Numbered from the stretch's first letter, positions 13,160 through 52,722 are shown. The stretch: 64,000 nt of DNA from Patescibacteria group bacterium (GCA_019752595.1 JAIELV010000001.1:553209-617208), one strand, 5' to 3'. Notes: generated from the letters alone by a model not told the origin. Translations and numbers: made by a program.

Positions 13160-13609
13160 ATGGGCGCACTTGTCGAAAATAAAAAAGCAAGACTCGAATA
13201 CGAAATCCTGGAATCATTCGAAGCAGGAATGCAGCTTTTCGGCTACGAAGTGAAGGCGCTTCGCATGGGGAGAGCATCCCTCGTCGGTTCGCGCGTCGTG
13301 GTGCGTGCAGGTGAAGCGTTTCTCGTTGGCGCCACTATCTCTCCGTACCAAGAAAAAAACACACCCAAAACATATGACGCTGAACGCACACGCCGCTTAC
13401 TGCTCTCGAAGAAAGAGATTGCTGATTTAGGAGATACTGAGGGGAAAAAAGGGTTGACAATTATACCTATCATGGTGTATAATAAGAGGAACAGGCTGAA
13501 ACTCCAGGTCGCTATCGTTCGTCATAAGAAAAAACATGACAAACGTGAGACACTCAAAGACCGCGACACCAAACGGATTATCGACCGCACCTTGAAAAAT
13601 CAATATTAG
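13160..13609 (+). CDS. smpB: SsrA-binding protein SmpB
   Basis: Conserved SmpB core (NKKARLEYEILESFEAGMQLFGYEVKALR...) and basic C-terminal tail. Followed by tmRNA. Confidence 0.9.
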   Translation: MGALVENKKARLEYEILESFEAGMQLFGYEVKALRMGRASLVGSRVVVRAGEAFLVGATISPYQEKNTPKTYDAERTRRLLLSKKEIADLGDTEGKKGLTIIPIMVYNKRNRLKLQVAIVRHKKKHDKRETLKDRDTKRIIDRTLKNQY

Positions 13610-13868: not shown

Positions 13869-14236
13869 GGGGATGATTTGATTCGACAGTGGGTCACGCT
13901 ATATACATGCGAAACGGTGAATGTTGGAGAACACCTAAAATCTCGAACAACAAACGTGTAAGAACGTCTGTACCGTCCTACTCCCTCGCGGAGATGGATC
14001 TCGCTTACGCTAACGCCTAAGCGGCGCCAAACTTTCAACGCCTTATAGAAAGTTCTTGGTGTCATAACATAAGGCTCTAAGAAATCGATTGCTCACCGAT
14101 TTCTCAAACTTACGAGCTCGACTGTGCGCGCTTTCGTTCGTTTCTTAACGCACCGTCTAAAACCCAAAAGCGAACTAGGTTCCGTAGATTGTACTAGCAA
14201 CACTCATTGGACGGGGTTTCAACACCCCCATCTCCA
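13869..14236 (+). ncRNA. ssrA: tmRNA (ssrA), standard one-piece, ~368 nt
   Basis: 5' GGGGATGATTTGATTCGACAGTGGG and 3' TTGGACGGGGTTTCAACACCCCCATCTCCA match the tRNA-like domain consensus. Acceptor GGGGATG pairs with CATCTCC. Sits directly downstream of smpB. A possible tag frame ends ...AEMDLAYANA-TAA at 14018..14020, but this is uncertain. Confidence 0.8.
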
Positions 14237-14240
14237 CAGA

Positions 14241-14369: not shown

Positions 14370-14993
14370 TTGAAACCCCGAGTACGCATCAATAACGAAA
14401 TTCGAGCCAAAGAACTCCGCGTCATCAAAGACGACGGTGGCAACCTTGGCGTCATCTCTACCGAAGAGGCTTTGAGGGTCGCAAAAGAGCTGGGATTGGA
14501 CTTAATCGAGATATCTCCTGGGGCCGTCCCTCCCGTTGCGAAAATAATGGATTATGGTAAATTTCAATATCTTGAGCAGAAAAAAGACCGAGAAATCAAG
14601 GCTAAATCCCACGTTACCGAGACCAAATCAGTACAGGTCGAAGTAGGCACTGGAGAGAACGACTTGATGCGAAAGGCCCGCCAGGCCGCAGGTTGGCTCA
14701 AGGACGGACACCGCGTCCGTATAGAGCTCTTTTTGAAAGGTAGGTACAAATACATGGATCCAGCGTTCCTCAAAGAGCGCCTCCAGAGATTCGTACTTTT
14801 GGTGCCCGAGGACTACAAGATTGCGGAAGCAGTCACCAAAGGTCCAAAAGGATTCACCACGATTATCGAGCGCGCAGGAAAAGGACCGAAGAAAGACGCT
14901 CCTATGTCTTCCCCCGCCTCTTCCCCTGCTCCCGCTAAGCCCGTCGTAAAACAAGAACCCAAACCCGAACAACCGAAACATGAAAACAAATAA
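14370..14993 (+). CDS. infC: Translation initiation factor IF-3, with a Pro/Lys/Ala-rich C-terminal extension. Non-AUG start (TTG at 14370; an in-frame ATT at 14367 is an alternative).
   Basis: RINNEIRAKELRVI...LGLDLIEISPGAVPPVAKIMDYGKFQY is the IF-3 N- and C-domain core. Followed by rpmI and rplT in the canonical operon order. Confidence 0.9.
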   Translation: MKPRVRINNEIRAKELRVIKDDGGNLGVISTEEALRVAKELGLDLIEISPGAVPPVAKIMDYGKFQYLEQKKDREIKAKSHVTETKSVQVEVGTGENDLMRKARQAAGWLKDGHRVRIELFLKGRYKYMDPAFLKERLQRFVLLVPEDYKIAEAVTKGPKGFTTIIERAGKGPKKDAPMSSPASSPAPAKPVVKQEPKPEQPKHENK

Positions 14994-15165
14994 GTCATAC
15001 ACGAAACGCTTGAAAGTAACCCGTAAGGGCAAATTGATTGCGCGCATGGCTGGCCAGAACCATTTCAATGCAAAAGAAGGAAGAAAGACTCGCACCAAGA
15101 AAGGCCGCACGACTGCGGTTGTGATGAACGCAGGAGATCGCGCACGCTTTCTTGCAGGTTCATAG
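14980..15165 (+). CDS. rpmI: 50S ribosomal protein L35
   Basis: 61-aa highly basic protein between infC and rplT. The KRLKVTRKGKLIAR...RKTRTKKGR pattern fits bL35. Overlaps the infC 3' end by 14 nt. Confidence 0.8.
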   Translation: MKTNKSYTKRLKVTRKGKLIARMAGQNHFNAKEGRKTRTKKGRTTAVVMNAGDRARFLAGS

Positions 15166-15170
15166 TTCTT

Positions 15171-15254
15171 AGAAAATCTTATGAGCATAGCGATGTAGAT
15201 TTTCTTAGACCCCGCCCTCTGAGCACCTGAACTTCGAGAGCAAAGAGGGCGGGG
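15171..15254. repeat. Palindromic element copy A: TTAGAAAATCTTA...AGATTTTCTTAGACCCCGCCCTCT-(23 nt)-AGAGGGCGGGG
   Basis: 11-bp GC-rich stem CCCCGCCCTCT/AGAGGGCGGGG (15210..15220 and 15244..15254), preceded by the inverted repeat AGAAAATCT/AGATTTTCT. Near-identical flank and stem at 34771..34867. Confidence 0.5.
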
Positions 15255-15297
15255 TGGAAGATTTTTTAATTCATTTCATTCATAACAAAATCTAACC

Positions 15298-15648
15298 ATG
15301 GCACGCACCAAAGGAGGAGTAAAACCAAGTAAGAAAAGGAAGAGCATCCTTAAGGCCGCAAAAGGCTTCCGTTTCGGACGCTCTAAGAAGAAACGATCCG
15401 CTTTGGACGCCCTCAAGCACGCTGGCAAATACGCATTCCGCGACCGAAGAGCTAAGAAGCGCAGTATGCGCGGCCTCCACATCGTCCGCATCAATGCAGC
15501 GCTTCGCGCAAACGGTTTCAAAAACTACAGCTCATTCATCGGCGCTTTGAAGAAAGCAAAAATTGACCTCGACCGCAAAGTGCTCTCACAGCTTGCCGAG
15601 CTCCATCCCGCGGCATTTGAACGCCTTGTAAAGAAAGTCGCCGCTTAA
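15298..15648 (+). CDS. rplT: 50S ribosomal protein L20
   Basis: [31 protein letters not shown]...[19 protein letters not shown] is the canonical bL20. Confidence 0.95.
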
Positions 15649-23831: not shown

Positions 23832-23887
23832 ATATATATTCTATCAGGGAGACGAAAGTACCACCCTCACTCTTACATTCCCCCAGT

Positions 23888-23908
23888 GTGCTATACTAAG
23901 TATAGCAC
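23888..23908. repeat. REP unit copy GTGCTATACTAAGTATAGCAC (+ATTTTCTG), solitary
   Basis: 21-bp palindrome identical, apart from the central base, to the units flanking the RAYT gene at 37733.. and 38483.. and to the copy at 47922... Confidence 0.6.
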
Positions 23909-23921
23909 ATTTTCTGTAAAA

Positions 23922-25286: not shown

Positions 25287-25583
25287 TTAAAGTCTCTCGG
25301 TGTCAAGCATGCGATAGCGACTTTCAATCTGTGTTCTCAGACCCGCACGTTCCGCAGGTGTGGCGCCTATGATATCCAAATAGAGTTCAGCAGTTCTGCG
25401 TCCGTCTCCAGGTTCTTCGTCAACAACGACTTTTACAGGCGCGACACGCCCTTCTCTATATCTTTTGGCACTCGCCTCACGCTCTCGAAACTGCGCTCGT
25501 GCGAAATCGTCCAAATGTGCCTGCGACCAAACCATACCGTTCATTACACACCCATAATACGCCTCTGTCAAACTCACTCTCAA
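25287..25583 (-). CDS. Hypothetical protein, 98 aa
   Basis: ORF ending 4 nt inside the suhB start. No family recognised. Confidence 0.35.
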   Translation of the reverse strand: MRVSLTEAYYGCVMNGMVWSQAHLDDFARAQFREREASAKRYREGRVAPVKVVVDEEPGDGRRTAELYLDIIGATPAERAGLRTQIESRYRMLDTERL

Positions 25584-26341
25584 ACCTTGAGAGCACGAAG
25601 CAATTCGTCATGCACGTGAGCGTTTGAAGCCACGAATCCGTTCACTTTTCCGTCATACCGCTGCTCAGCGCCCTTTAAATCAGTCACTTTCCCGCCTGCT
25701 TCTTCTACTACGATTTTTACCGCAGCAGCATCCCACGGCTTGTCATAGGGATATATTGCCGCTACGAATTCCCCTGTTGCAACCAGCATGCTTGCGTACA
25801 CGCAGGAATAAATTGTGGGAACGTAACATTCTTTCTCATGTAAATACGCACGGAGCGAAGTCATTCTGTCGTCGGTATTTAATTCGACGAATGATTGTTT
25901 GGTAATTTCCTTTTCGGAAGACACTGAAATTTTCTGTCCGTTCAAATGCGCACCCTTTCCTTTTTCAGCGGATATCATGCGATCCATAATTGGGTCATAC
26001 ATCACCCCAAGAATGCTTTCGCCGTTTTTCGTGAGCGCCAAGGAAAACGCGAACGTCGGGAAACCGTGTGAAAACGGAATCGTGCCGTCCACGGGGTCAC
26101 ACACCCACGCGTATTCGCTTTCTTTCAGATTGCTGGCTTCCTCCCCGATGACAGAGTGCGAGGGATACGCCTTCGAAATGGCTTCAATAACAAGCTTATT
26201 GATTGCGGTGTCGGTTACCGTAAGTGGAGTGTTGTCCGACTTCCACTCTTTCTTCATGCCTGTAACGCCGAGCGAGAAATTCTCCCGCATTATTTTCCCT
26301 GCCTCCCGCGCCAACCCTTCTGCAAATTCAAGCTCTTTCAT
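25580..26341 (-). CDS. suhB: Inositol monophosphatase family protein
   Basis: IGEEAS...WVCDPVDGTIPFSHGFPTFAFSLAL and C-terminal WDAAA motifs of the IMPase family. Confidence 0.8.
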   Translation of the reverse strand: MKELEFAEGLAREAGKIMRENFSLGVTGMKKEWKSDNTPLTVTDTAINKLVIEAISKAYPSHSVIGEEASNLKESEYAWVCDPVDGTIPFSHGFPTFAFSLALTKNGESILGVMYDPIMDRMISAEKGKGAHLNGQKISVSSEKEITKQSFVELNTDDRMTSLRAYLHEKECYVPTIYSCVYASMLVATGEFVAAIYPYDKPWDAAAVKIVVEEAGGKVTDLKGAEQRYDGKVNGFVASNAHVHDELLRALKV

Positions 26342-26377: not shown

Positions 26378-26419
26378 CAGTATATCACTATGGTAACATG
26401 TTACCATAGTGATATACTG
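26378..26419. promoter_or_regulatory. 42-bp perfect palindrome CAGTATATCACTATGGTAACATGTTACCATAGTGATATACTG
   Basis: Exact self-complementarity verified. Lies between the map 3' end and the suhB 5' end on the minus strand. Confidence 0.5.
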
Positions 26420-26474: not shown

Positions 26475-27242
26475 TCATTCAAGGGTCAAGATTTCAGGTT
26501 TGCCTTTTGTTATCAAAATCGTGTGTTCGAAATGTGCAGCTCGGGAACCATCTTTGGTTACAAACGTATATCCGTCTGGCATCAATTTCACCCTCGGTGT
26601 ACCTTCCGTAAACATAGGCTCAATTGCCAATACCATATTCGGTAAAAGCTCTTCTCCTGTTCCTGCGTCCCCCACATTCGGGATATACGGCTCTTCATGC
26701 ACGCGATGTCCTACGCCGTGCCCACCAAGCTCATACACGATGCCGTAGCCTTTCTCCACGCCTATCTTTTCTATAGCAGCACTGATATCGCCTACGCGCG
26801 CGCCACCTTTTGCAGCATTGATGCCCGCCATCATGGCGTCTTTGGTTGCCTGTAATAGCGCGCGCGTCTCCGCGTCTTTAGTATCGCCTGCTATGACGGA
26901 AATCGCGTGGTCGGTAATCAAACCTTTATGCGTGACCCCGCAATCCAAACTAACAATGTCCCCATTCTGAACCGTGCGCGGATCTTCGTTCGCGACACCG
27001 TGAACTATTTCCTCATTTATAGAAATGCATATAGCCGCGGGGAACGGGCGTTTCGCGCCGCTCGGGGTATAGCCGAGAAACGACGGCGTGTCGCCATTCT
27101 CTCGAATCAATTTTTCCGCTAAGTCATTTAACTCGAGCGTCGTCACTCCTGGCACCACTGCCTTTGCGACTTCCGCCACGACGCGCGCCAAACGTTTACC
27201 GCCTTCACGCAGTATCAGAACTTCTTCGTCAGTCTTCACCAT
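26475..27242 (-). CDS. map: Methionine aminopeptidase, type I
   Basis: Pita-bread fold metal ligands (D..D..H..E..E pattern) and HGVANEDPRTVQNGDIVSLDCGV. Confidence 0.9.
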   Translation of the reverse strand: MVKTDEEVLILREGGKRLARVVAEVAKAVVPGVTTLELNDLAEKLIRENGDTPSFLGYTPSGAKRPFPAAICISINEEIVHGVANEDPRTVQNGDIVSLDCGVTHKGLITDHAISVIAGDTKDAETRALLQATKDAMMAGINAAKGGARVGDISAAIEKIGVEKGYGIVYELGGHGVGHRVHEEPYIPNVGDAGTGEELLPNMVLAIEPMFTEGTPRVKLMPDGYTFVTKDGSRAAHFEHTILITKGKPEILTLE

Positions 27243-32168: not shown

Positions 32169-32438
32169 TTACCAAGAAGATTTCTTAACTCCAGGGATTT
32201 CTCCGCGGCGGGCCATTTCTCTAAACTGCTGACGTGAGATACCAAAGTAGCGCATGTAGCCGCGAGAACGACCAGTGACCGCACAGCGGTTTTTCACACG
32301 AACAGGAGAACTGTTTTTGGGCAACTTCTGAAGTGCCTCCCAGTTTCCTTCTTTCTTTAGTGCCAAGCGTTTAGCGTTCATACGCTCGCTCATGCGGATA
32401 CGTTTAATGTTTCGTGCAATTTGTGATGTTTTTGCCAT
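32169..32438 (-). CDS. rpsN: 30S ribosomal protein S14, long non-zinc type (89 aa)
   Basis: [13 protein letters not shown]...[39 protein letters not shown]. Confidence 0.85.
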
Positions 32439-32622
32439 AAAAAATACCCTTTTCAGGGTGCCCACAAACAAAAAGTTTTGGGACAACCTGTGCCACTCGT
32501 AAGTGGCTGGTTTTGTCGCCTTTTGGCCTTGTTCTGCTTTCCTTTCGGGAGCCAGTACACGGACTTAAAGCTCGGATGACTATAGCAGATGCCCCCCCAG
32601 CGGTCAAACTCGACTTTCTATA

Positions 32623-32651
32623 CAAAAACACCCCCATACAAGGGGTGTTTT
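32623..32651. terminator. Bidirectional terminator hairpin (ACACCCC-loop-GGGGTGT with flanking A- and T-runs)
   Basis: 7-bp stem. On the minus strand it follows the 3' end of the inserted 32663..33778 gene, just upstream of rpsN. Confidence 0.6.
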
Positions 32652-32662
32652 AAGAGAGATTT

Positions 32663-33778
32663 TTAATTTGAATCTCTAGCTCCAGGGAAATCGGCAAGAC
32701 TTGGATCCATCCCCACTTTATTAAGAAGTGCAATCAATACATCACGTTGATGCTGATGGAAACGATCATCTGCTTCTCTTAATGCCTTATCTTTTTCCTT
32801 AATTGCCACCTCCAAGTCATCGTTCCTTGCTTTGAGGGCCTTAATGGAATCCTCCATATCAGTAATACGACGCTTCTCGGCCTCTTCCAGAGCAAGTCTG
32901 CCTGCTTCCTCAGTAAGTGCTGCGCGTGCTTTTTCCCCACCGAGCTTAAGCAATGCTAAATCGCGTTCTGGTCCAGATGCAGGAAGCTCGGCATTCGCAA
33001 GAAGAGCAGCTACAGGATCGAGCTCAAGCATTACAGGCATTTCAAACTGCTGTTCCTCTTCAATGCCTTGGGCCTCAAACTTCCACACGTTACCTTCGCG
33101 GTGGAGGTTAAGTCGCAAACCTACTCTACTTAGCTGTTCATCGAGTGCTTCGAAACTGCCAAGTTCAACGATATCCAAAAATTGCTCTCCTGATTCAGCT
33201 AGTTTCGCTTTTTCCCTCTCGAGACCTAACTTCTTTCTATTTTCCCATGCTCCTTGCCTTACCCAACCGAAAGGAGAGCGCGCTTTCTTTTCAAACTTGG
33301 CATCCTGAGCAACCATCTCATCGTATTCTGCGTTTGCAGAAGAAAGAATTTCGCTTTTTACCTTGCCGTCAACTTCATCTATGTCACGAATTTCTTTTTT
33401 CTTCCCAGTCTGGCGCTCCTGGGCCTCTGCCATATACACACCATCCGAAATACCAACAAGACCAGTTTTTTCGTCCGCGGCAAGGAAGCTGAGATCCACC
33501 CTTCCTTTTTCGTCAGGCACGAGTTCCTGCAAATCTGCATCGCCCCCCCCTGCTTCAGCTGCGTCGATCTTCGCTTTAAGCTTTTCTGCAGCCGAACGCA
33601 ACGCAACATGTATTTCGAAAACACGATCGACTTTCGCAAGTCCTTCAGCTTTTTTTCTTACAACGTCTGGGTTTGCGGCGCGCACATTCTGCGCTCTTCC
33701 ATTCAAACGCGGTCGCTCACCACGAATAGCTCGGGAAAACACGACATCACCTGGACCGACTCCATTACCTTCAGCCAT
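32663..33778 (-). CDS. Hypothetical coiled-coil protein (371 aa, Glu/Lys/Ala-rich) inserted between rplE and rpsN
   Basis: Long ORF of heptad-like charged low-complexity sequence. Its own AT-rich upstream region (33779..33870) and flanking terminators indicate an independent transcription unit. Confidence 0.5.
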   Translation of the reverse strand: MAEGNGVGPGDVVFSRAIRGERPRLNGRAQNVRAANPDVVRKKAEGLAKVDRVFEIHVALRSAAEKLKAKIDAAEAGGGDADLQELVPDEKGRVDLSFLAADEKTGLVGISDGVYMAEAQERQTGKKKEIRDIDEVDGKVKSEILSSANAEYDEMVAQDAKFEKKARSPFGWVRQGAWENRKKLGLEREKAKLAESGEQFLDIVELGSFEALDEQLSRVGLRLNLHREGNVWKFEAQGIEEEQQFEMPVMLELDPVAALLANAELPASGPERDLALLKLGGEKARAALTEEAGRLALEEAEKRRITDMEDSIKALKARNDDLEVAIKEKDKALREADDRFHQHQRDVLIALLNKVGMDPSLADFPGARDSN

Positions 33779-33876
33779 ACGCTTTATATAAAAAGTATTA
33801 AATAAGTAAAGTATTAAACAACGATATTCTATATTGTAAATCCTCTACGGGTATTTGTCAAGCCCGTGCGGTGGAT

Positions 33877-33900
33877 GAAAAACACCCCTTTCGGGGTGTT
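33877..33900 (-). terminator. Rho-independent terminator directly downstream of rplE (ACACCCC-TTTC-GGGGTGT, then TTTTT on the minus strand)
   Basis: Hairpin 5 nt after the rplE stop. Strong T-run in the minus-strand orientation. Confidence 0.65.
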
Positions 33901-33904
33901 TGGA

Positions 33905-34435
33905 TTACTGAAGCGGGAACTTGAGGTGGCGGAAGAATGCTTCTGCCTCTTTCTTGCCCTTGGCTGAGGTTACAACGGTAACCGCAAGCCCGAAGACGTC
34001 TTTCAGGTCTTCGTCTGAAGTTTCAGGGAAGATGGTGTGCTCCTTGATACCAACAGTCATGTTACCCAAAGAATCAATACCTTTTGGTGAAATGCCGCGG
34101 AAGTCGCGTGTACGAGGGAATGCGATGTGAATCAGTTTATCCAAAAAGTCATACATACGTGCGCCACGAAGCGTTACTTGGTAGCCCACTACGTCACCCT
34201 GACGGACCTTAAAGGTTGCGATTGATTTCTTCGCGCCACGAGCTGCTGCTTTCTGGCCCGTGATTTTCGCAAGACGATCCTGAATGACTTCAATCTTGTT
34301 TTTATCCTTTATCTTGCCAACACCCGTTGAAATAACCACTTTCTGCAAGCGAGGTGTCTGAAGGCGGTTCTTATATTTGAACTCGCCCTTCAGTGCGTCA
34401 TATGCGCCCTTTTCTGTTTCTTTAGTTATATTCAT
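33905..34435 (-). CDS. rplE: 50S ribosomal protein L5
   Basis: YKNRLQTPRLQKVVISTGVGK...KITGQKAAARGAKKSIATFKVRQG is the uL5 core. Confidence 0.9.
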   Translation of the reverse strand: MNITKETEKGAYDALKGEFKYKNRLQTPRLQKVVISTGVGKIKDKNKIEVIQDRLAKITGQKAAARGAKKSIATFKVRQGDVVGYQVTLRGARMYDFLDKLIHIAFPRTRDFRGISPKGIDSLGNMTVGIKEHTIFPETSDEDLKDVFGLAVTVVTSAKGKKEAEAFFRHLKFPLQ

Positions 34436-34740
34436 ACGAGTTCTGATTTGCTCTTCTTAGTAACACGTGCGCGCTTGCCGTTCTTTCTTTCAATGCCAAC
34501 GCGGGTCGGTTTGCCTGATTTCGGGTCAACAAGCATAACATTTGATACATGAATCGGAAGTGCCTTCTCGACAATCTGACCCTGCTGACCACCACGGCGA
34601 GGTTTCTGGTGCTTCTTTCTCATGTTCACACCTTCAACAATCACTTTGTTTTCTTTTGGTATTGCAAGCGTCACGGTACCAGTTTTGCCCTTGTCCTTAC
34701 CTGCCATCACAATTACTTTGTCGTTCTTTTTTATTTTCAT
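34432..34740 (-). CDS. rplX: 50S ribosomal protein L24
   Basis: MKIKKNDKVIVMAGKDKGKTGTV (KOW motif), uL24. Confidence 0.9.
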   Translation of the reverse strand: MKIKKNDKVIVMAGKDKGKTGTVTLAIPKENKVIVEGVNMRKKHQKPRRGGQQGQIVEKALPIHVSNVMLVDPKSGKPTRVGIERKNGKRARVTKKSKSELV

Positions 34741-34770
34741 ATCTTAGATTTTGTTACCGAGTCCGCGAGG

Positions 34771-34867
34771 TTAGAAAATCTTAGACCCCGCCCTCTAAGC
34801 TTATCCGAGAAACGGGTGGGGACATTTTCTATTCCGATGTGTTTCATTGTTTGCATAGAGGGCGGGG
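34771..34867. repeat. Palindromic element copy B: TTAGAAAATCTTAGACCCCGCCCTCT-(59 nt)-AGAGGGCGGGG. It fills an unusually long rplN-rplX spacer.
   Basis: Same 26-nt 5' flank and 11-bp GC-rich stem as copy A at 15171..15254. rplN and rplX are normally adjacent; here they are 160 nt apart. Confidence 0.5.
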
Positions 34868-34900
34868 TGATGAAAAATATATTCGCTTCGCTCATTATTT

Positions 34901-35281
34901 TTACACCACTTCAGGTGCGAGGGAACCTATTTTCTGGTAACCGAGGTCGACGATTTCGCGAGGAATAGGGCCGAACACGCGGTTTGCTTTCGGTTCAAAC
35001 GGGTCTTTTGCATTTTTCGAAAGAATAACCACTGCGTTGTCGTCGAAACGGATGTACGAACCATCAGTTCGGCGGAATGGCTTGGTCTGGCGAACCACAA
35101 CGCCCGTCAAGACATCCTTTTTCTTCACCATTTTGCGAGGCTCTGCAATCTGCACTGAAAGCACTACCAAATCCCCGATAGAAGCAGTGCGCTTCTTTGA
35201 GCCACCAAGCACTTTGAAAATGCGTCCGATTTTACCTCCGGTGTTGTCTGCGATAACGACGAGTGAGCGATCTTGAATCAT
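34901..35281 (-). CDS. rplN: 50S ribosomal protein L14
   Basis: MIQDRSLVVIADNTGGKIGRIFKVLGG... is the uL14 core. Confidence 0.9.
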   Translation of the reverse strand: MIQDRSLVVIADNTGGKIGRIFKVLGGSKKRTASIGDLVVLSVQIAEPRKMVKKKDVLTGVVVRQTKPFRRTDGSYIRFDDNAVVILSKNAKDPFEPKANRVFGPIPREIVDLGYQKIGSLAPEVV

Positions 35282-37731: not shown

Positions 37732-38507
37732 AGTGCTACACTTAGTATAGCACATTCCTGAGGAATGTGCTATACTAAGTGTTGAACATGATTAAAAAAT
37801 CACGACATGGAGTTGCCCCAGGCGAGTATTATCATATTTTTAACCGCGGAAGTAATCGTAGCGCTATCTTTACCGACAAAGCAGAGCGCCAGCGATTTCT
37901 TTTCAACATCCTGTACCTGCAATCCCCCGAATCGTTCAGGAACGTAAATCGTATTTCGGGAAATTATACCCCTGACGAAGGATTCCCTGTGTCCGCTGAA
38001 GCGACGGAAGCGATACTGAAGAATCGCTACGTAGAACTAGTGTCATTCTGTCTCATGCCGAACCACTTCCACCTTATGGTCAAAGAGGTAGAAGACGGCG
38101 GAATTGCGAAGTATATGCACCGTGTGGCGGTTGGGTATGCAAAGTATTTCGGTGAAAAACATGAACATTCAGGGCATGTGTTCCAAGGCTCATATAAAGC
38201 CGTCCCTGTGACTGACAATCGCCAGCTTCTTTACCTTTCGGCCTATATACACAAAAATCCACACGAACTTGCTGACTGGAAAGGGCGCGAGGCTGAATAT
38301 CCGTGGTCATCGCTCCAAGACTTCACTGTCGCGAACCGTTGGGGAGGATTGATTGTGCCTGACATCATTACAGGGCAATTCGAACAAACAAAAAACAGCA
38401 ATTACGCTGATTTTGTGAAAAGCTCAACCGCGAAACTTCTTAAAGAAGAACTTGCTGACCTCAATCTCCCGTAAAACAAAAAGTGCTATACTTAGTATAG
38501 CACTTTT
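37732..38507 (+). mobile_element. REP-RAYT-REP unit: an IS200-like Y1 (HUH) transposase gene flanked by inverted REP palindromes, inserted antisense between rpsS and rplB
   Basis: 5' flank: GTGCTACACTTAGTATAGCAC plus a nested 41-bp perfect palindrome ACTTAGTATAGCACATTCCTGAGGAATGTGCTATACTAAGT (37740..37780). 3' flank: AAAAGTGCTATACTTAGTATAGCACTTTT (38479..38507). The transposase ORF lies between them. Confidence 0.7.
37788..38474 (+). CDS. REP-associated tyrosine transposase (RAYT; IS200/IS605 TnpA-like Y1 HUH enzyme, E. coli YafM-type)
   Basis: N-terminal GEYYHIFNRGSNRSAIF block. HUH motif in LMPNHFHLMV. HVFQGSYKAV, and catalytic-tyrosine motif SAYIHKNPHE. Opposite strand to the surrounding r-protein genes. 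Confidence 0.75.
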   Translation: MIKKSRHGVAPGEYYHIFNRGSNRSAIFTDKAERQRFLFNILYLQSPESFRNVNRISGNYTPDEGFPVSAEATEAILKNRYVELVSFCLMPNHFHLMVKEVEDGGIAKYMHRVAVGYAKYFGEKHEHSGHVFQGSYKAVPVTDNRQLLYLSAYIHKNPHELADWKGREAEYPWSSLQDFTVANRWGGLIVPDIITGQFEQTKNSNYADFVKSSTAKLLKEELADLNLP

Positions 38508-47823: not shown

Positions 47824-47921
47824 TTGTCTACGAAAAACTGCCACAAAGGCAGTGCGCGTACTATACAGAATCGCTATTTAAAAAGCAAGGATAAGAGTCA
47901 GAGAATGCCGAAAACCTCGCT

Positions 47922-47942
47922 GTGCTATACTTAGTATAGCAC
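47922..47942. repeat. REP unit copy GTGCTATACTTAGTATAGCAC (+ATTCTGGGGG), solitary, upstream of rpsL
   Basis: Identical 21-bp palindrome and ATTCTG tail as the RAYT-flanking copies. Confidence 0.6.
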
Positions 47943-47952
47943 ATTCTGGGGG

Positions 47953-52245: not shown

Positions 52246-52722
52246 GTGCTATACTCCCCCGCAATGAGCGCGGAAGGTGCACCAGCAGGAGGAGAAGTAG
52301 CGAATGACAATAAAAAATTGCCAGGGCCAGTTTGGTTTATTTCCGAAGTGCTAAAACCGATTCCTGTATTTGTGCCAATTGTCGGTGGTCTTGCGGTGAA
52401 GGGTGAAGAGGCTGGTCACAGTGACGACCACGGCGGCGGCCACGGTGATGAACACGGAGGAGGACATGGCGACGACCATGGCGGAGGTCATGGAGACGCG
52501 CACGGCGGAGATCATGGTGGTGGTCACGGAGATGCACATGGTGGTGGACACGGAGAAGCACATGGCGGTGAAGCGCATGGTGACGGCCATGGCGGTGAAC
52601 ACGGAGGTGGACACGGAACTGAAGCCGCGCACGGAGCTGAAGCAGCCCATGACGCTGATCCGCATGCCCCAGCAAATGATCACGCCCCAGCGCCTGCAGC
52701 GGCACACCGCACGGCGGCGTAA
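52246..52722 (+). CDS. His/Gly-rich repeat protein (about nine tandem HGGGHGD(E/D/A)-type heptads), putative metal-binding
   Basis: 21-nt tandem nucleotide repeats encode HGGGHGDEHGGGHGDDHGGGHGDAHGGDHGGGHGDAHGGGHGEAHGG... The start codon is uncertain. Confidence 0.55.
   Translation: MLYSPAMSAEGAPAGGEVANDNKKLPGPVWFISEVLKPIPVFVPIVGGLAVKGEEAGHSDDHGGGHGDEHGGGHGDDHGGGHGDAHGGDHGGGHGDAHGGGHGEAHGGEAHGDGHGGEHGGGHGTEAAHGAEAAHDADPHAPANDHAPAPAAAHRTAA

Follow-up and report, generated by a model that had tools for sequence, protein, structure and literature searches.

REP sequences are short imperfect palindromes with a GTAG or CGTC head (PMC3733652), the free-standing GIY-YIG homing endonuclease genes of T-even phages, the Seg family, are known for 'intronless homing' (PMC1564403, PMC2330249), and bacterial MITEs such as Correia/NEMIS, ERIC and RUP are co-transcribed in operons (reviewed in PMC3184786, PMC2229807 and PMC10969869). 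The prokaryotic Slx1-like minimal GIY-YIG proteins form a family of stand-alone domains of unknown function (PMC1564403). In the window, by which we mean the whole 64,000-nucleotide stretch of DNA that was analysed, the spacers of two ribosomal-protein operons are occupied by a palindromic element that, by analogy, would work most like a cross of T-even GIY-YIG homing genes, REPIN-RAYT and operon-embedded MITEs. We consider it probable, at roughly three chances in four, that the two spacer sequences belong to a selfish palindromic element that is widespread in Patescibacteria, and that they are MITE-like, non-autonomous copies without its gene.

As in REPIN-RAYT, one small nuclease gene lies between inverted palindromic repeats that are almost invariant, and gene-less hairpin doublets are dispersed extragenically. 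The element differs from that partnership in that its nuclease is of the GIY-YIG (Slx1-like) type instead of an HUH Y1 transposase (RAYT), the arms CCCCGCCCTCT(ATGC) have no GTAG/CGTC head, copies stand exactly in front of start codons, and many loci contain the nuclease gene itself. With the T-even Seg genes it shares the GIY-YIG catalytic domain (here in full-length relatives), the location between conserved co-oriented genes, presence or absence between related genomes, and recurrent occupation of the same junction in different lineages. In contrast to the Seg genes, its protein comprises only 71–89 aa and has no DNA-binding (NUMOD-type) domain, the cassette is bracketed by a near-invariant inverted repeat, gene-less derivatives and near-identical copies at unrelated loci occur, and the hosts are Patescibacteria chromosomes, not phages. 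In homing endonucleases, it is a separate DNA-binding domain that gives a long asymmetric target.

The window copies, 132 and 160 nt long, resemble MITEs in having inverted ends and no ORF, in forming mRNA hairpins and in being polymorphic, but the only ORF of the full-length partner encodes a GIY-YIG nuclease instead of a DDE or other known transposase, no clear target-site duplication is seen, and the insertion is tied in its position to the ATG that follows. The Slx1-like/UPF0213 proteins BH0048 (1zg2) and EF2693 (1ywl), likewise minimal stand-alone domains, are the best sequence and fold matches of the nuclease, although identity to the two structures is only 22–30 %. In open-access papers and bioRxiv we found no mention of UPF0213 proteins being bracketed by hairpins, and a full-text search of the same sources returned no description of hairpin-bracketed mini GIY-YIG cassettes. 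The element is apparently undescribed so far, and there is a substantial chance that it represents a distinct class of mobile element.

Two hairpin-forming copies in ribosomal-protein operons

Copy A (15166..15297, plus strand) is 132 nt long and constitutes the entire spacer between rpmI (14980-15165, plus strand; Pfam L35) and rplT (15298-15648, plus strand; Pfam L20). Copy B (34741..34900, minus strand) constitutes all 160 nt between rplN (34901-35281, minus strand; Pfam L14) and rplX (34432-34740, minus strand; Pfam L24). The first-pass annotation had placed both hairpin sequences correctly and was also right that the first fills the rpmI-rplT spacer and that the second inflates the normally tiny rplN-rplX junction to 160 nt; the extents it assigned, 15171-15254 and 34771..34867, were too small. 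Both copies share the same anatomy, consisting of an AU hairpin (H1), the 11-bp GC stem CCCCGCCCTCT/AGAGGGCGGGG (H2) that had already been recognised as common to the two, and a second AU hairpin (H3). The H1 cap follows the consensus GAGCnnnGCGA in both, and H3 ends 0–3 nt from the downstream ATG.

In copy A, the AU-rich hairpin H1 (15167..15209; AGAAAAUCU/AGAUUUUCU, cap GAGCAUAGCGA) folds with -11.7 kcal/mol (z = -2.55). It is followed by the 5' GC arm CCCCGCCCTCT (15210..15220), a 23-nt H2 loop (15221..15243) at the site that carries the GIY-YIG ORF in full-length relatives, and the 3' GC arm AGAGGGCGGGG (15244..15254), both arms being supported by a motif search and an arm-pairing test. 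The loop starts with GAGC and ends with GCAA, compared with ATGC...GCTT in ORF-bearing copies. H3 (15255..15297; AAGAUUUU...AAAAUCU) is supported by covariation that includes the two nucleotides just 5' of the ATG, and its closing pairs GG/CC adjoin the rplT ATG at 15298.

Copy B, located on the minus strand throughout, begins with a weak AU hairpin H1 (34868..34906; cap GAGCGAAGCGA; -3.9 kcal/mol, z = -0.3), the 5' strand of which overlaps the rplN stop codon. Read in transcript sense, the 5' GC arm CCCCGCCCTCT (34857..34867) and the 3' GC arm AGAGGGCGGGG (34786..34796), established by the same two tests, enclose an H2 loop (34797..34856) that starts with ATGCAA, ends with AAGCTT and measures 60 nt instead of the 59 nt first counted. 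H3 (34741..34785) reads UCUAAGAUUUUCUAA-CCUCGCGGACUCGG-UAACAAAAUCUAAGAU and ends at the rplX ATG (34740-34738); the right ends of the relatives L010 and L005 match it with 93–96 % identity over 57–58 nt.

The 11-mer CCCCGCCCTCT and its complement have exactly four matches in the window, all within copies A and B, where shuffled sequences predict 0.62 matches and none of 100 shuffles reaches four. As rplN and rplX lie on the minus strand, the copies have to be compared in transcript sense. The alignment then runs from the 3' arm through AAGATTTTyTAA, a 13–14-nt loop and TAACAAAATCTAA to the downstream ATG, and it is superior to the plus-to-plus alignment, which we discarded. A repeat finder reports both a direct match of 29 nt at 86 % and an inverted match of 31 nt at 84 % between the copies. 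The 26-nt 5' flank described initially as shared is exact in copy B, where the 26-mer TTAGAAAATCTTAGACCCCGCCCTCT occupies 34771-34796, whereas copy A matches it only on the other strand and with three mismatches (15244-15269). On its plus strand, copy A contains TAGATTTTCTTAGACCCCGCCCTCT at 15196-15220, and the TTAGAAAATCTTA part, 26 nt further upstream, pairs with it as a hairpin. The apparent common flank thus results from comparing the palindromic, inverted ends of the element plus-to-plus.

Folded in the transcribed orientation, both copies are more stable than shuffled sequences, with minimum free energies of -44.2 kcal/mol (z = -4.5) for copy A and -46.1 kcal/mol (z = -3.0) for copy B. 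A search with all end modules of the family found no copies in the window beyond these two, and neither the copies nor the rest of the 64-kb window contain a GIY-YIG gene. Short Logan contigs match the window at 100 % or 99.4 % identity. One of them, L003, corresponds to window 33942-34850, so that its end falls within the copy B H2 loop, and assemblies may break at this repeat.

A dispersed family with a nuclease gene in the central loop

The pattern AGAGGGCGGGGTNNAAGATTTT, which demands an exact 3' arm and would miss decayed copies, was scanned over one genome per GTDB species, the source genome not being among the representatives. Eight of the nine matches fall into five Saccharibacteria/Patescibacteria MAGs, and the ninth, inside a coding region of Terracidiphilus, was discarded as a chance match. 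All eight copies have the same layout and adjoin the ATG of a co-oriented gene, namely rplT (L009), rpsN (L010), rplM (L007), rpsM (L011), secF (L005 and L008), rplK (L004, genes on the minus strand) and a P-loop gene (L012). The 5' arm, which lies outside the search pattern, is exact in seven of them and carries a G-U-compatible change in the remaining one. With many further copies in other genomes, the refuting case of only two copies does not apply, and the initial description of a repeated, hairpin-forming, dispersed extragenic element proved accurate. Gene-less inverted doublets in extragenic space amount to ten copies in six genomes, plus two that were found by chance on the same contig as, and within 2 kb of, gene-bearing copies and whose arms covary.

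At the level of the family, the left end (H1 and arm) resembles the reverse complement of the right end (arm and H3), so that the element possesses inverted ends of about 45–50 nt. The H1 loop of L013 (CCGAGTCTGCGAGG), for example, matches the reverse complement of the H3 loop of copy B, and the H1 loop of L009 matches that of copy A. As H1 stems are out of register between copies, they were folded singly; in these single-sequence folds, nine of eleven family members show the H1 architecture with differing stem sequences. H3 covaries, and this includes the two bases after GGGGT, which change together with the two bases before the ATG (GG/CC, CT/AG, GT/AC, AT/AT and TT/AA). This covariation suggests that the geometry of H3 beside the AUG is under selection.

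The H2 loop ranges from 3 nt (L011) to 220 nt (L005) among the eight copies, and the full-length form of the element encodes a minimal GIY-YIG nuclease. The 220-nt loop of L005 consists of a 73-aa ORF (L005:1774-1992) that is assigned to Pfam GIY-YIG with E = 2.8e-7, above the curated cut-off; it starts with an ATG immediately behind the 5' arm and runs into the 3' arm, which shares its first two bases with the TAG stop. Homologues of this ORF form 24 clusters (49–63 % identity, 71–89 aa), and those at ftsE-ftsX, nusG-rplK and hicA-tauE are bracketed by arms in the same manner, with the arms at hicA-tauE covarying (CCCAGCCCTCT/AGAGGGCTGGG). Scanning metagenomes with the family alignment yielded 245 relatives, from which we retained 80 loci. 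Together with four loci found earlier, 84 loci were examined for arms. Both arms were found at 76 of these, the 5' arm ending 0–18 nt (mostly 0–11) before the ATG and the 3' arm lying over the stop codon; one more locus has covarying arms that the two-mismatch search had missed.

When 40 distinct arm pairs are compared, 97 % of the positions in the extended stem (A)CCCCGCCCTCTATGC/GCTTAGAGGGCGGGG(T) are paired. Compensatory double changes occur at six pairs, none of 500 shuffles reaches the observed values, and slid registers all score far lower. The arms are almost invariant while the proteins diverge to about 50 % identity, which makes them a convenient marker for finding the family; their higher conservation could equally mean a host or RNA function.

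Full-length relatives encode an intact nuclease, in which the catalytic residues Y, Y, G, R, H and E are invariant. All 73 aa belong to the catalytic domain, and no separate DNA-binding domain is present. The AF2 model reaches a pLDDT of 93.9, profile searches against the PDB return E = 4.4e-8 for 1zg2 and 4.7e-5 for 1ywl, and the top three Foldseek matches are 1zg2 (UPF0213 BH0048), Slx1 6seh and 1ywl (EF2693). NCBIfam offers no specific model for the GIY-YIG protein.

Most gene-less loops measure 23–77 nt and have the same ends, ATGC...GCTT, as the ORF, and such copies probably derive from gene-bearing ones, as judged from these sequences. The loop termini ATGC...GCnT in gene-less copies also extend the stem. 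A match of 20 of 23 positions between the H2 loop of copy B and the YIGY-coding part of L005 (p about 0.02, one of five targets) is not robust; being a single marginal local match, it is suggestive only, and we do not regard H2 loops as proven ORF remnants. Gene callers tend to be misled at these loci. They read through the 5' arm and add N-terminal extensions such as ...TPPSM (ACC CCG CCC TCT ATG), as in the database proteins P0002 and P0014, and the same read-through in copy B creates a spurious 52-aa ORF (window 34737-34895, minus strand).

Turnover among relatives and position before start codons

The occupied junctions differ between close relatives. The CAYHUW MAG encodes an L20 identical to that of the window, with DNA identity of 75–87 %. 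Its rplN-rplX junction on L010 reads TAA-ACGT-ATG, a 4-nt spacer compared with 160 nt in the window, and its rpmI-rplT junction on L100 holds an unrelated 40-nt spacer compared with 132 nt. Conversely, a copy of the element abuts the rpsN ATG in the CAYHUW MAG, a position that is free of it in the window although the upstream leaders can still be aligned, and further copies precede rplM and secF in this MAG. Three further relatives, chosen by L20 similarity (79–88 % identity), have rpmI-rplT spacers of 31–41 nt. Of these four relatives (L20 79–100 % identical), three were compared as DNA and show no element sequence at rpmI-rplT, the fourth being judged by gene coordinates only. In a more distant genome (L20 65 % identical) the element is present at rpmI-rplT, which implies either that this junction was entered independently or that the element was lost several times. 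The empty junctions are without any hairpin. Compared with them, filled sites have a substituted or lengthened spacer that reaches the ATG, and no duplication is clearly apparent. Both presence/absence polymorphism and recurrent occupancy of the same site are seen across genomes. We regard it as established that the window copies are insertions of a dispersed palindromic element that are dispensable and were gained or lost recently.

Since the same junctions are empty in close relatives, the element is no conserved leader, in keeping with the first-pass proposal of a dispersed repeat. A conserved leader of ribosomal-protein operons was rejected because of the empty orthologous sites and the Rfam results, as only tmRNA and tRNAs exceed the gathering score in the window, and L001 and L002, which carry both copies, give no Rfam match at E<=1. 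A host cis-regulatory RNA of these operons, serving as attenuator, RNase processing site or autoregulatory protein-binding site, would account for two copies in highly expressed translation operons in transcript sense, for folds that exceed shuffled sequences in stability, and for an H3 helix that covaries up to the AUG. We nevertheless regard it as very improbable, because the element also precedes such unrelated genes as secF, ftsX, mraZ, recR, parA, mreB and tauE, can hold a nuclease gene, and would have to be read through to express essential downstream genes. The attenuator or processing-site role originally suggested is not borne out either, as neither copy has a terminator call (the stem is followed by UGGAAGAUUUU or UCUAAGAUUUU, without a U tract, and the loops are 23 and 60 nt long) or a promoter consensus.

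A selfish origin with later exaptation was weighed as well, in which the GC hairpin protects the upstream mRNA from 3' exonucleases or uncouples neighbouring cistrons. Roles in mRNA stabilisation and uncoupling have been reported for REP, ERIC and Correia elements. A very stable GC helix of 11–15 bp inside a polycistronic transcript, arms that are perfectly kept in gene-less copies, and a 4-nt coupled junction replaced by a 160-nt structured spacer would all be expected of such a function. Against it stand the rapid turnover between close relatives and the fact that conservation of the 3' arm in gene-less copies is imposed by the search pattern, so that we judge exaptation to be unlikely, if less so than an original regulatory role.

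Nearly always, the element is followed directly by the start codon of some housekeeping gene. At 51 of 58 non-redundant gene-bearing loci, a same-strand ORF starts 1–139 nt after the 3' arm, with modes at 15–18, 40–45 and 61–69 nt. Among 49 non-redundant downstream genes, Pfam identifies MraZ 13 times, S16 nine times, RecR three times and L11 twice, while MreB, ParA-like, SecF, L21, NusA, S19, SerRS, FtsX, L10, TauE and Hsp20 occur once each. Neither a consensus beyond the ATG nor a target-site duplication was found among the targets, and the precise position beside the ATG could reflect selection rather than targeting. At L042, L058-L060, L063, L065, L069, L083, L096 and L099 the cassette separates the mraZ ATG from repeated TGTGGATAAC/TGGGAAAA motifs that probably represent the operator and promoter region bound by MraZ. 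Its location 3' of these motifs means that it would be transcribed from the dcw-cluster promoter.

Translation in the source genome seems to start without Shine-Dalgarno sequences. About 20 well-defined starts, those of all ribosomal-protein genes among them, were inspected, and none has a Shine-Dalgarno-like motif within about 15 nt. In such a genome, a reading of the arms as Shine-Dalgarno and anti-Shine-Dalgarno sequences was rejected, and an A-rich end with H3 at the AUG may serve as a plausible neutral substitute for the original junction. The motif AACAAAATCTAA does not qualify as a general translation signal, with 14 matches compared with 9.2 expected in the window. A context similar to AACAAAATCTAA precedes map, and many gene starts in the window lie 2–6 nt after the upstream stop codon.

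Identical cassettes are also found at unrelated loci. L085, located before rpsP, and L090, located before rplU, share 100 % identity over arms, ORF and right flank as far as the ATG, while the outer left module differs and the flanks beyond are unrelated; L030 and L043 encode 98.6 % identical proteins before different downstream genes. Protein identity at the same site amounts to 78 % for rpsP and 67 % for mraZ, compared with 62 % between sites. The greater likeness of same-site proteins, taken together with identical cassettes at different loci, indicates both site fidelity and jumping.

The palindromic module might itself be the primary dispersed repeat, otherwise mobilised or maintained by the host, with the GIY-YIG gene as a secondary homing parasite. 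The nuclease site would then be the palindrome CCCCGCCCTCT|AGAGGGCGGGG, and the window copies would be unoccupied or re-emptied targets. L011, a nearly perfect 25-bp palindrome around its 3-nt loop, looks like such a site, the ORF is inserted exactly at the palindrome centre, the arms are better conserved than the protein, and a 73-aa nuclease without DNA-binding domain fits a dimer on a palindrome. The differing left modules of L085 and L090 are likewise expected from conversion into a resident copy. The short gene-less loops with their ORF-like ends, however, suggest internal deletion, no other mobilising function was seen beside the copies, and junctions that are empty of any hairpin mean that the module itself must move too. 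A primary module is thus somewhat unlikely in our view, though well ahead of the regulatory and exaptation readings.

Candidate mode of spread and further features of the window

We return to the reading of a selfish element with gene-less copies, for which the following mode of movement is inferred. Near-invariant arms, an ORF at the palindrome centre and the lack of a DNA-binding domain point to a nuclease acting on the arms. It would probably do so as a dimer, on the palindromic site either in duplex form or as an extruded hairpin. Repair would then copy the cassette in a homing-like manner, the recipient being either a copy that lacks the gene or the corresponding junction of a related genome, and new junctions would occasionally be colonised. 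The window copies, lacking a gene of their own, would be mobile only with a nuclease supplied from elsewhere in the genome. The element would be co-transcribed with its operon, its RNA folding into three hairpins. Because the ATG pairs within the extended stem, the strong GC stem would bury and thereby hide the nuclease start codon in full-length copies, and H3 would set an A-rich, Shine-Dalgarno-free context at the downstream AUG. Insertion would be tolerated rather than useful.

More tentatively, and with somewhat less than even confidence, we propose that the family constitutes an unrecognised class of bacterial mobile element, the only protein of which, a minimal, probably dimeric Slx1-like GIY-YIG nuclease, recognises the near-invariant palindromic ends, and which spreads by homing into gene-less copies and by colonising positions before start codons. 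If this is true, the family would parallel the REPIN-RAYT partnership with a GIY-YIG nuclease in place of the transposase, would suit genomes that do without Shine-Dalgarno sequences, and would give a biological role to part of the UPF0213 family of unknown function. An anonymous palindrome in ribosomal-protein operons is now linked to a specific nuclease gene, and the minimal GIY-YIG proteins of Patescibacteria gain a role that can be tested on a defined substrate, namely the 11–15-bp arms as DNA or RNA. On the selfish-element reading, streamlined CPR genomes tolerate insertions of this kind in their most conserved operons, exactly at start codons, which bears on translation starts without Shine-Dalgarno sequences and on the separation of tightly coupled cistrons. 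For genome annotation, the element accounts for inflated spacers, for spurious small ORFs, those containing TPPSM among them, and possibly for contig breaks in MAGs.

The window's other palindrome family, initially termed the REP unit, is distinct from the element, as had been proposed. Its sequence TGTGCTATACTwAGTATAGCACA occurs in intergenic positions at 23887-23910, 37732-37755, 37766-37789, 38482-38505 and 47921-47944, and either half, taken on its own strand, has the form of an extended -10 promoter (TGnTATACT). An ATG (37787) follows 11 nt after the end of the box at 37766-37789. These features suggest bidirectional promoters and near-leaderless mRNAs rather than REP elements.

Several further features of the window were recorded. 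Between rplE and rpsN (32437-33904, minus strand), the spc operon is interrupted by, in this order, a terminator-like hairpin, a TTGACA/TACAAT promoter-like site, a 371-aa ORF (32663-33778, minus strand) without Pfam family, a second hairpin of the terminator type and some 200 nt of leader sequence; in L010 an unrelated 675-aa ORF, also without Pfam family, takes this place. A perfect 42-bp palindrome without spacer, CAGTATATCACTATGGTAACA|TGTTACCATAGTGATATACTG, is located at 26378-26419 between a 253-aa ORF (25580-26341) and the ORF at 26475-27242 that we take as map. A 12-nt tandem repeat inside an ORF (52380-52660, plus strand) encodes the His/Gly/Asp-rich sequence GHGDxHGGGHGD..., and the product may be a metal-binding, low-complexity protein. 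Upstream of copy A, smpB (13160-13609) is directly followed by tmRNA (13869-14239, Rfam 72.8 bits) and infC-rpmI-rplT, and the order smpB-tmRNA-infC-rpmI-rplT is kept in the relatives L100 and L103.
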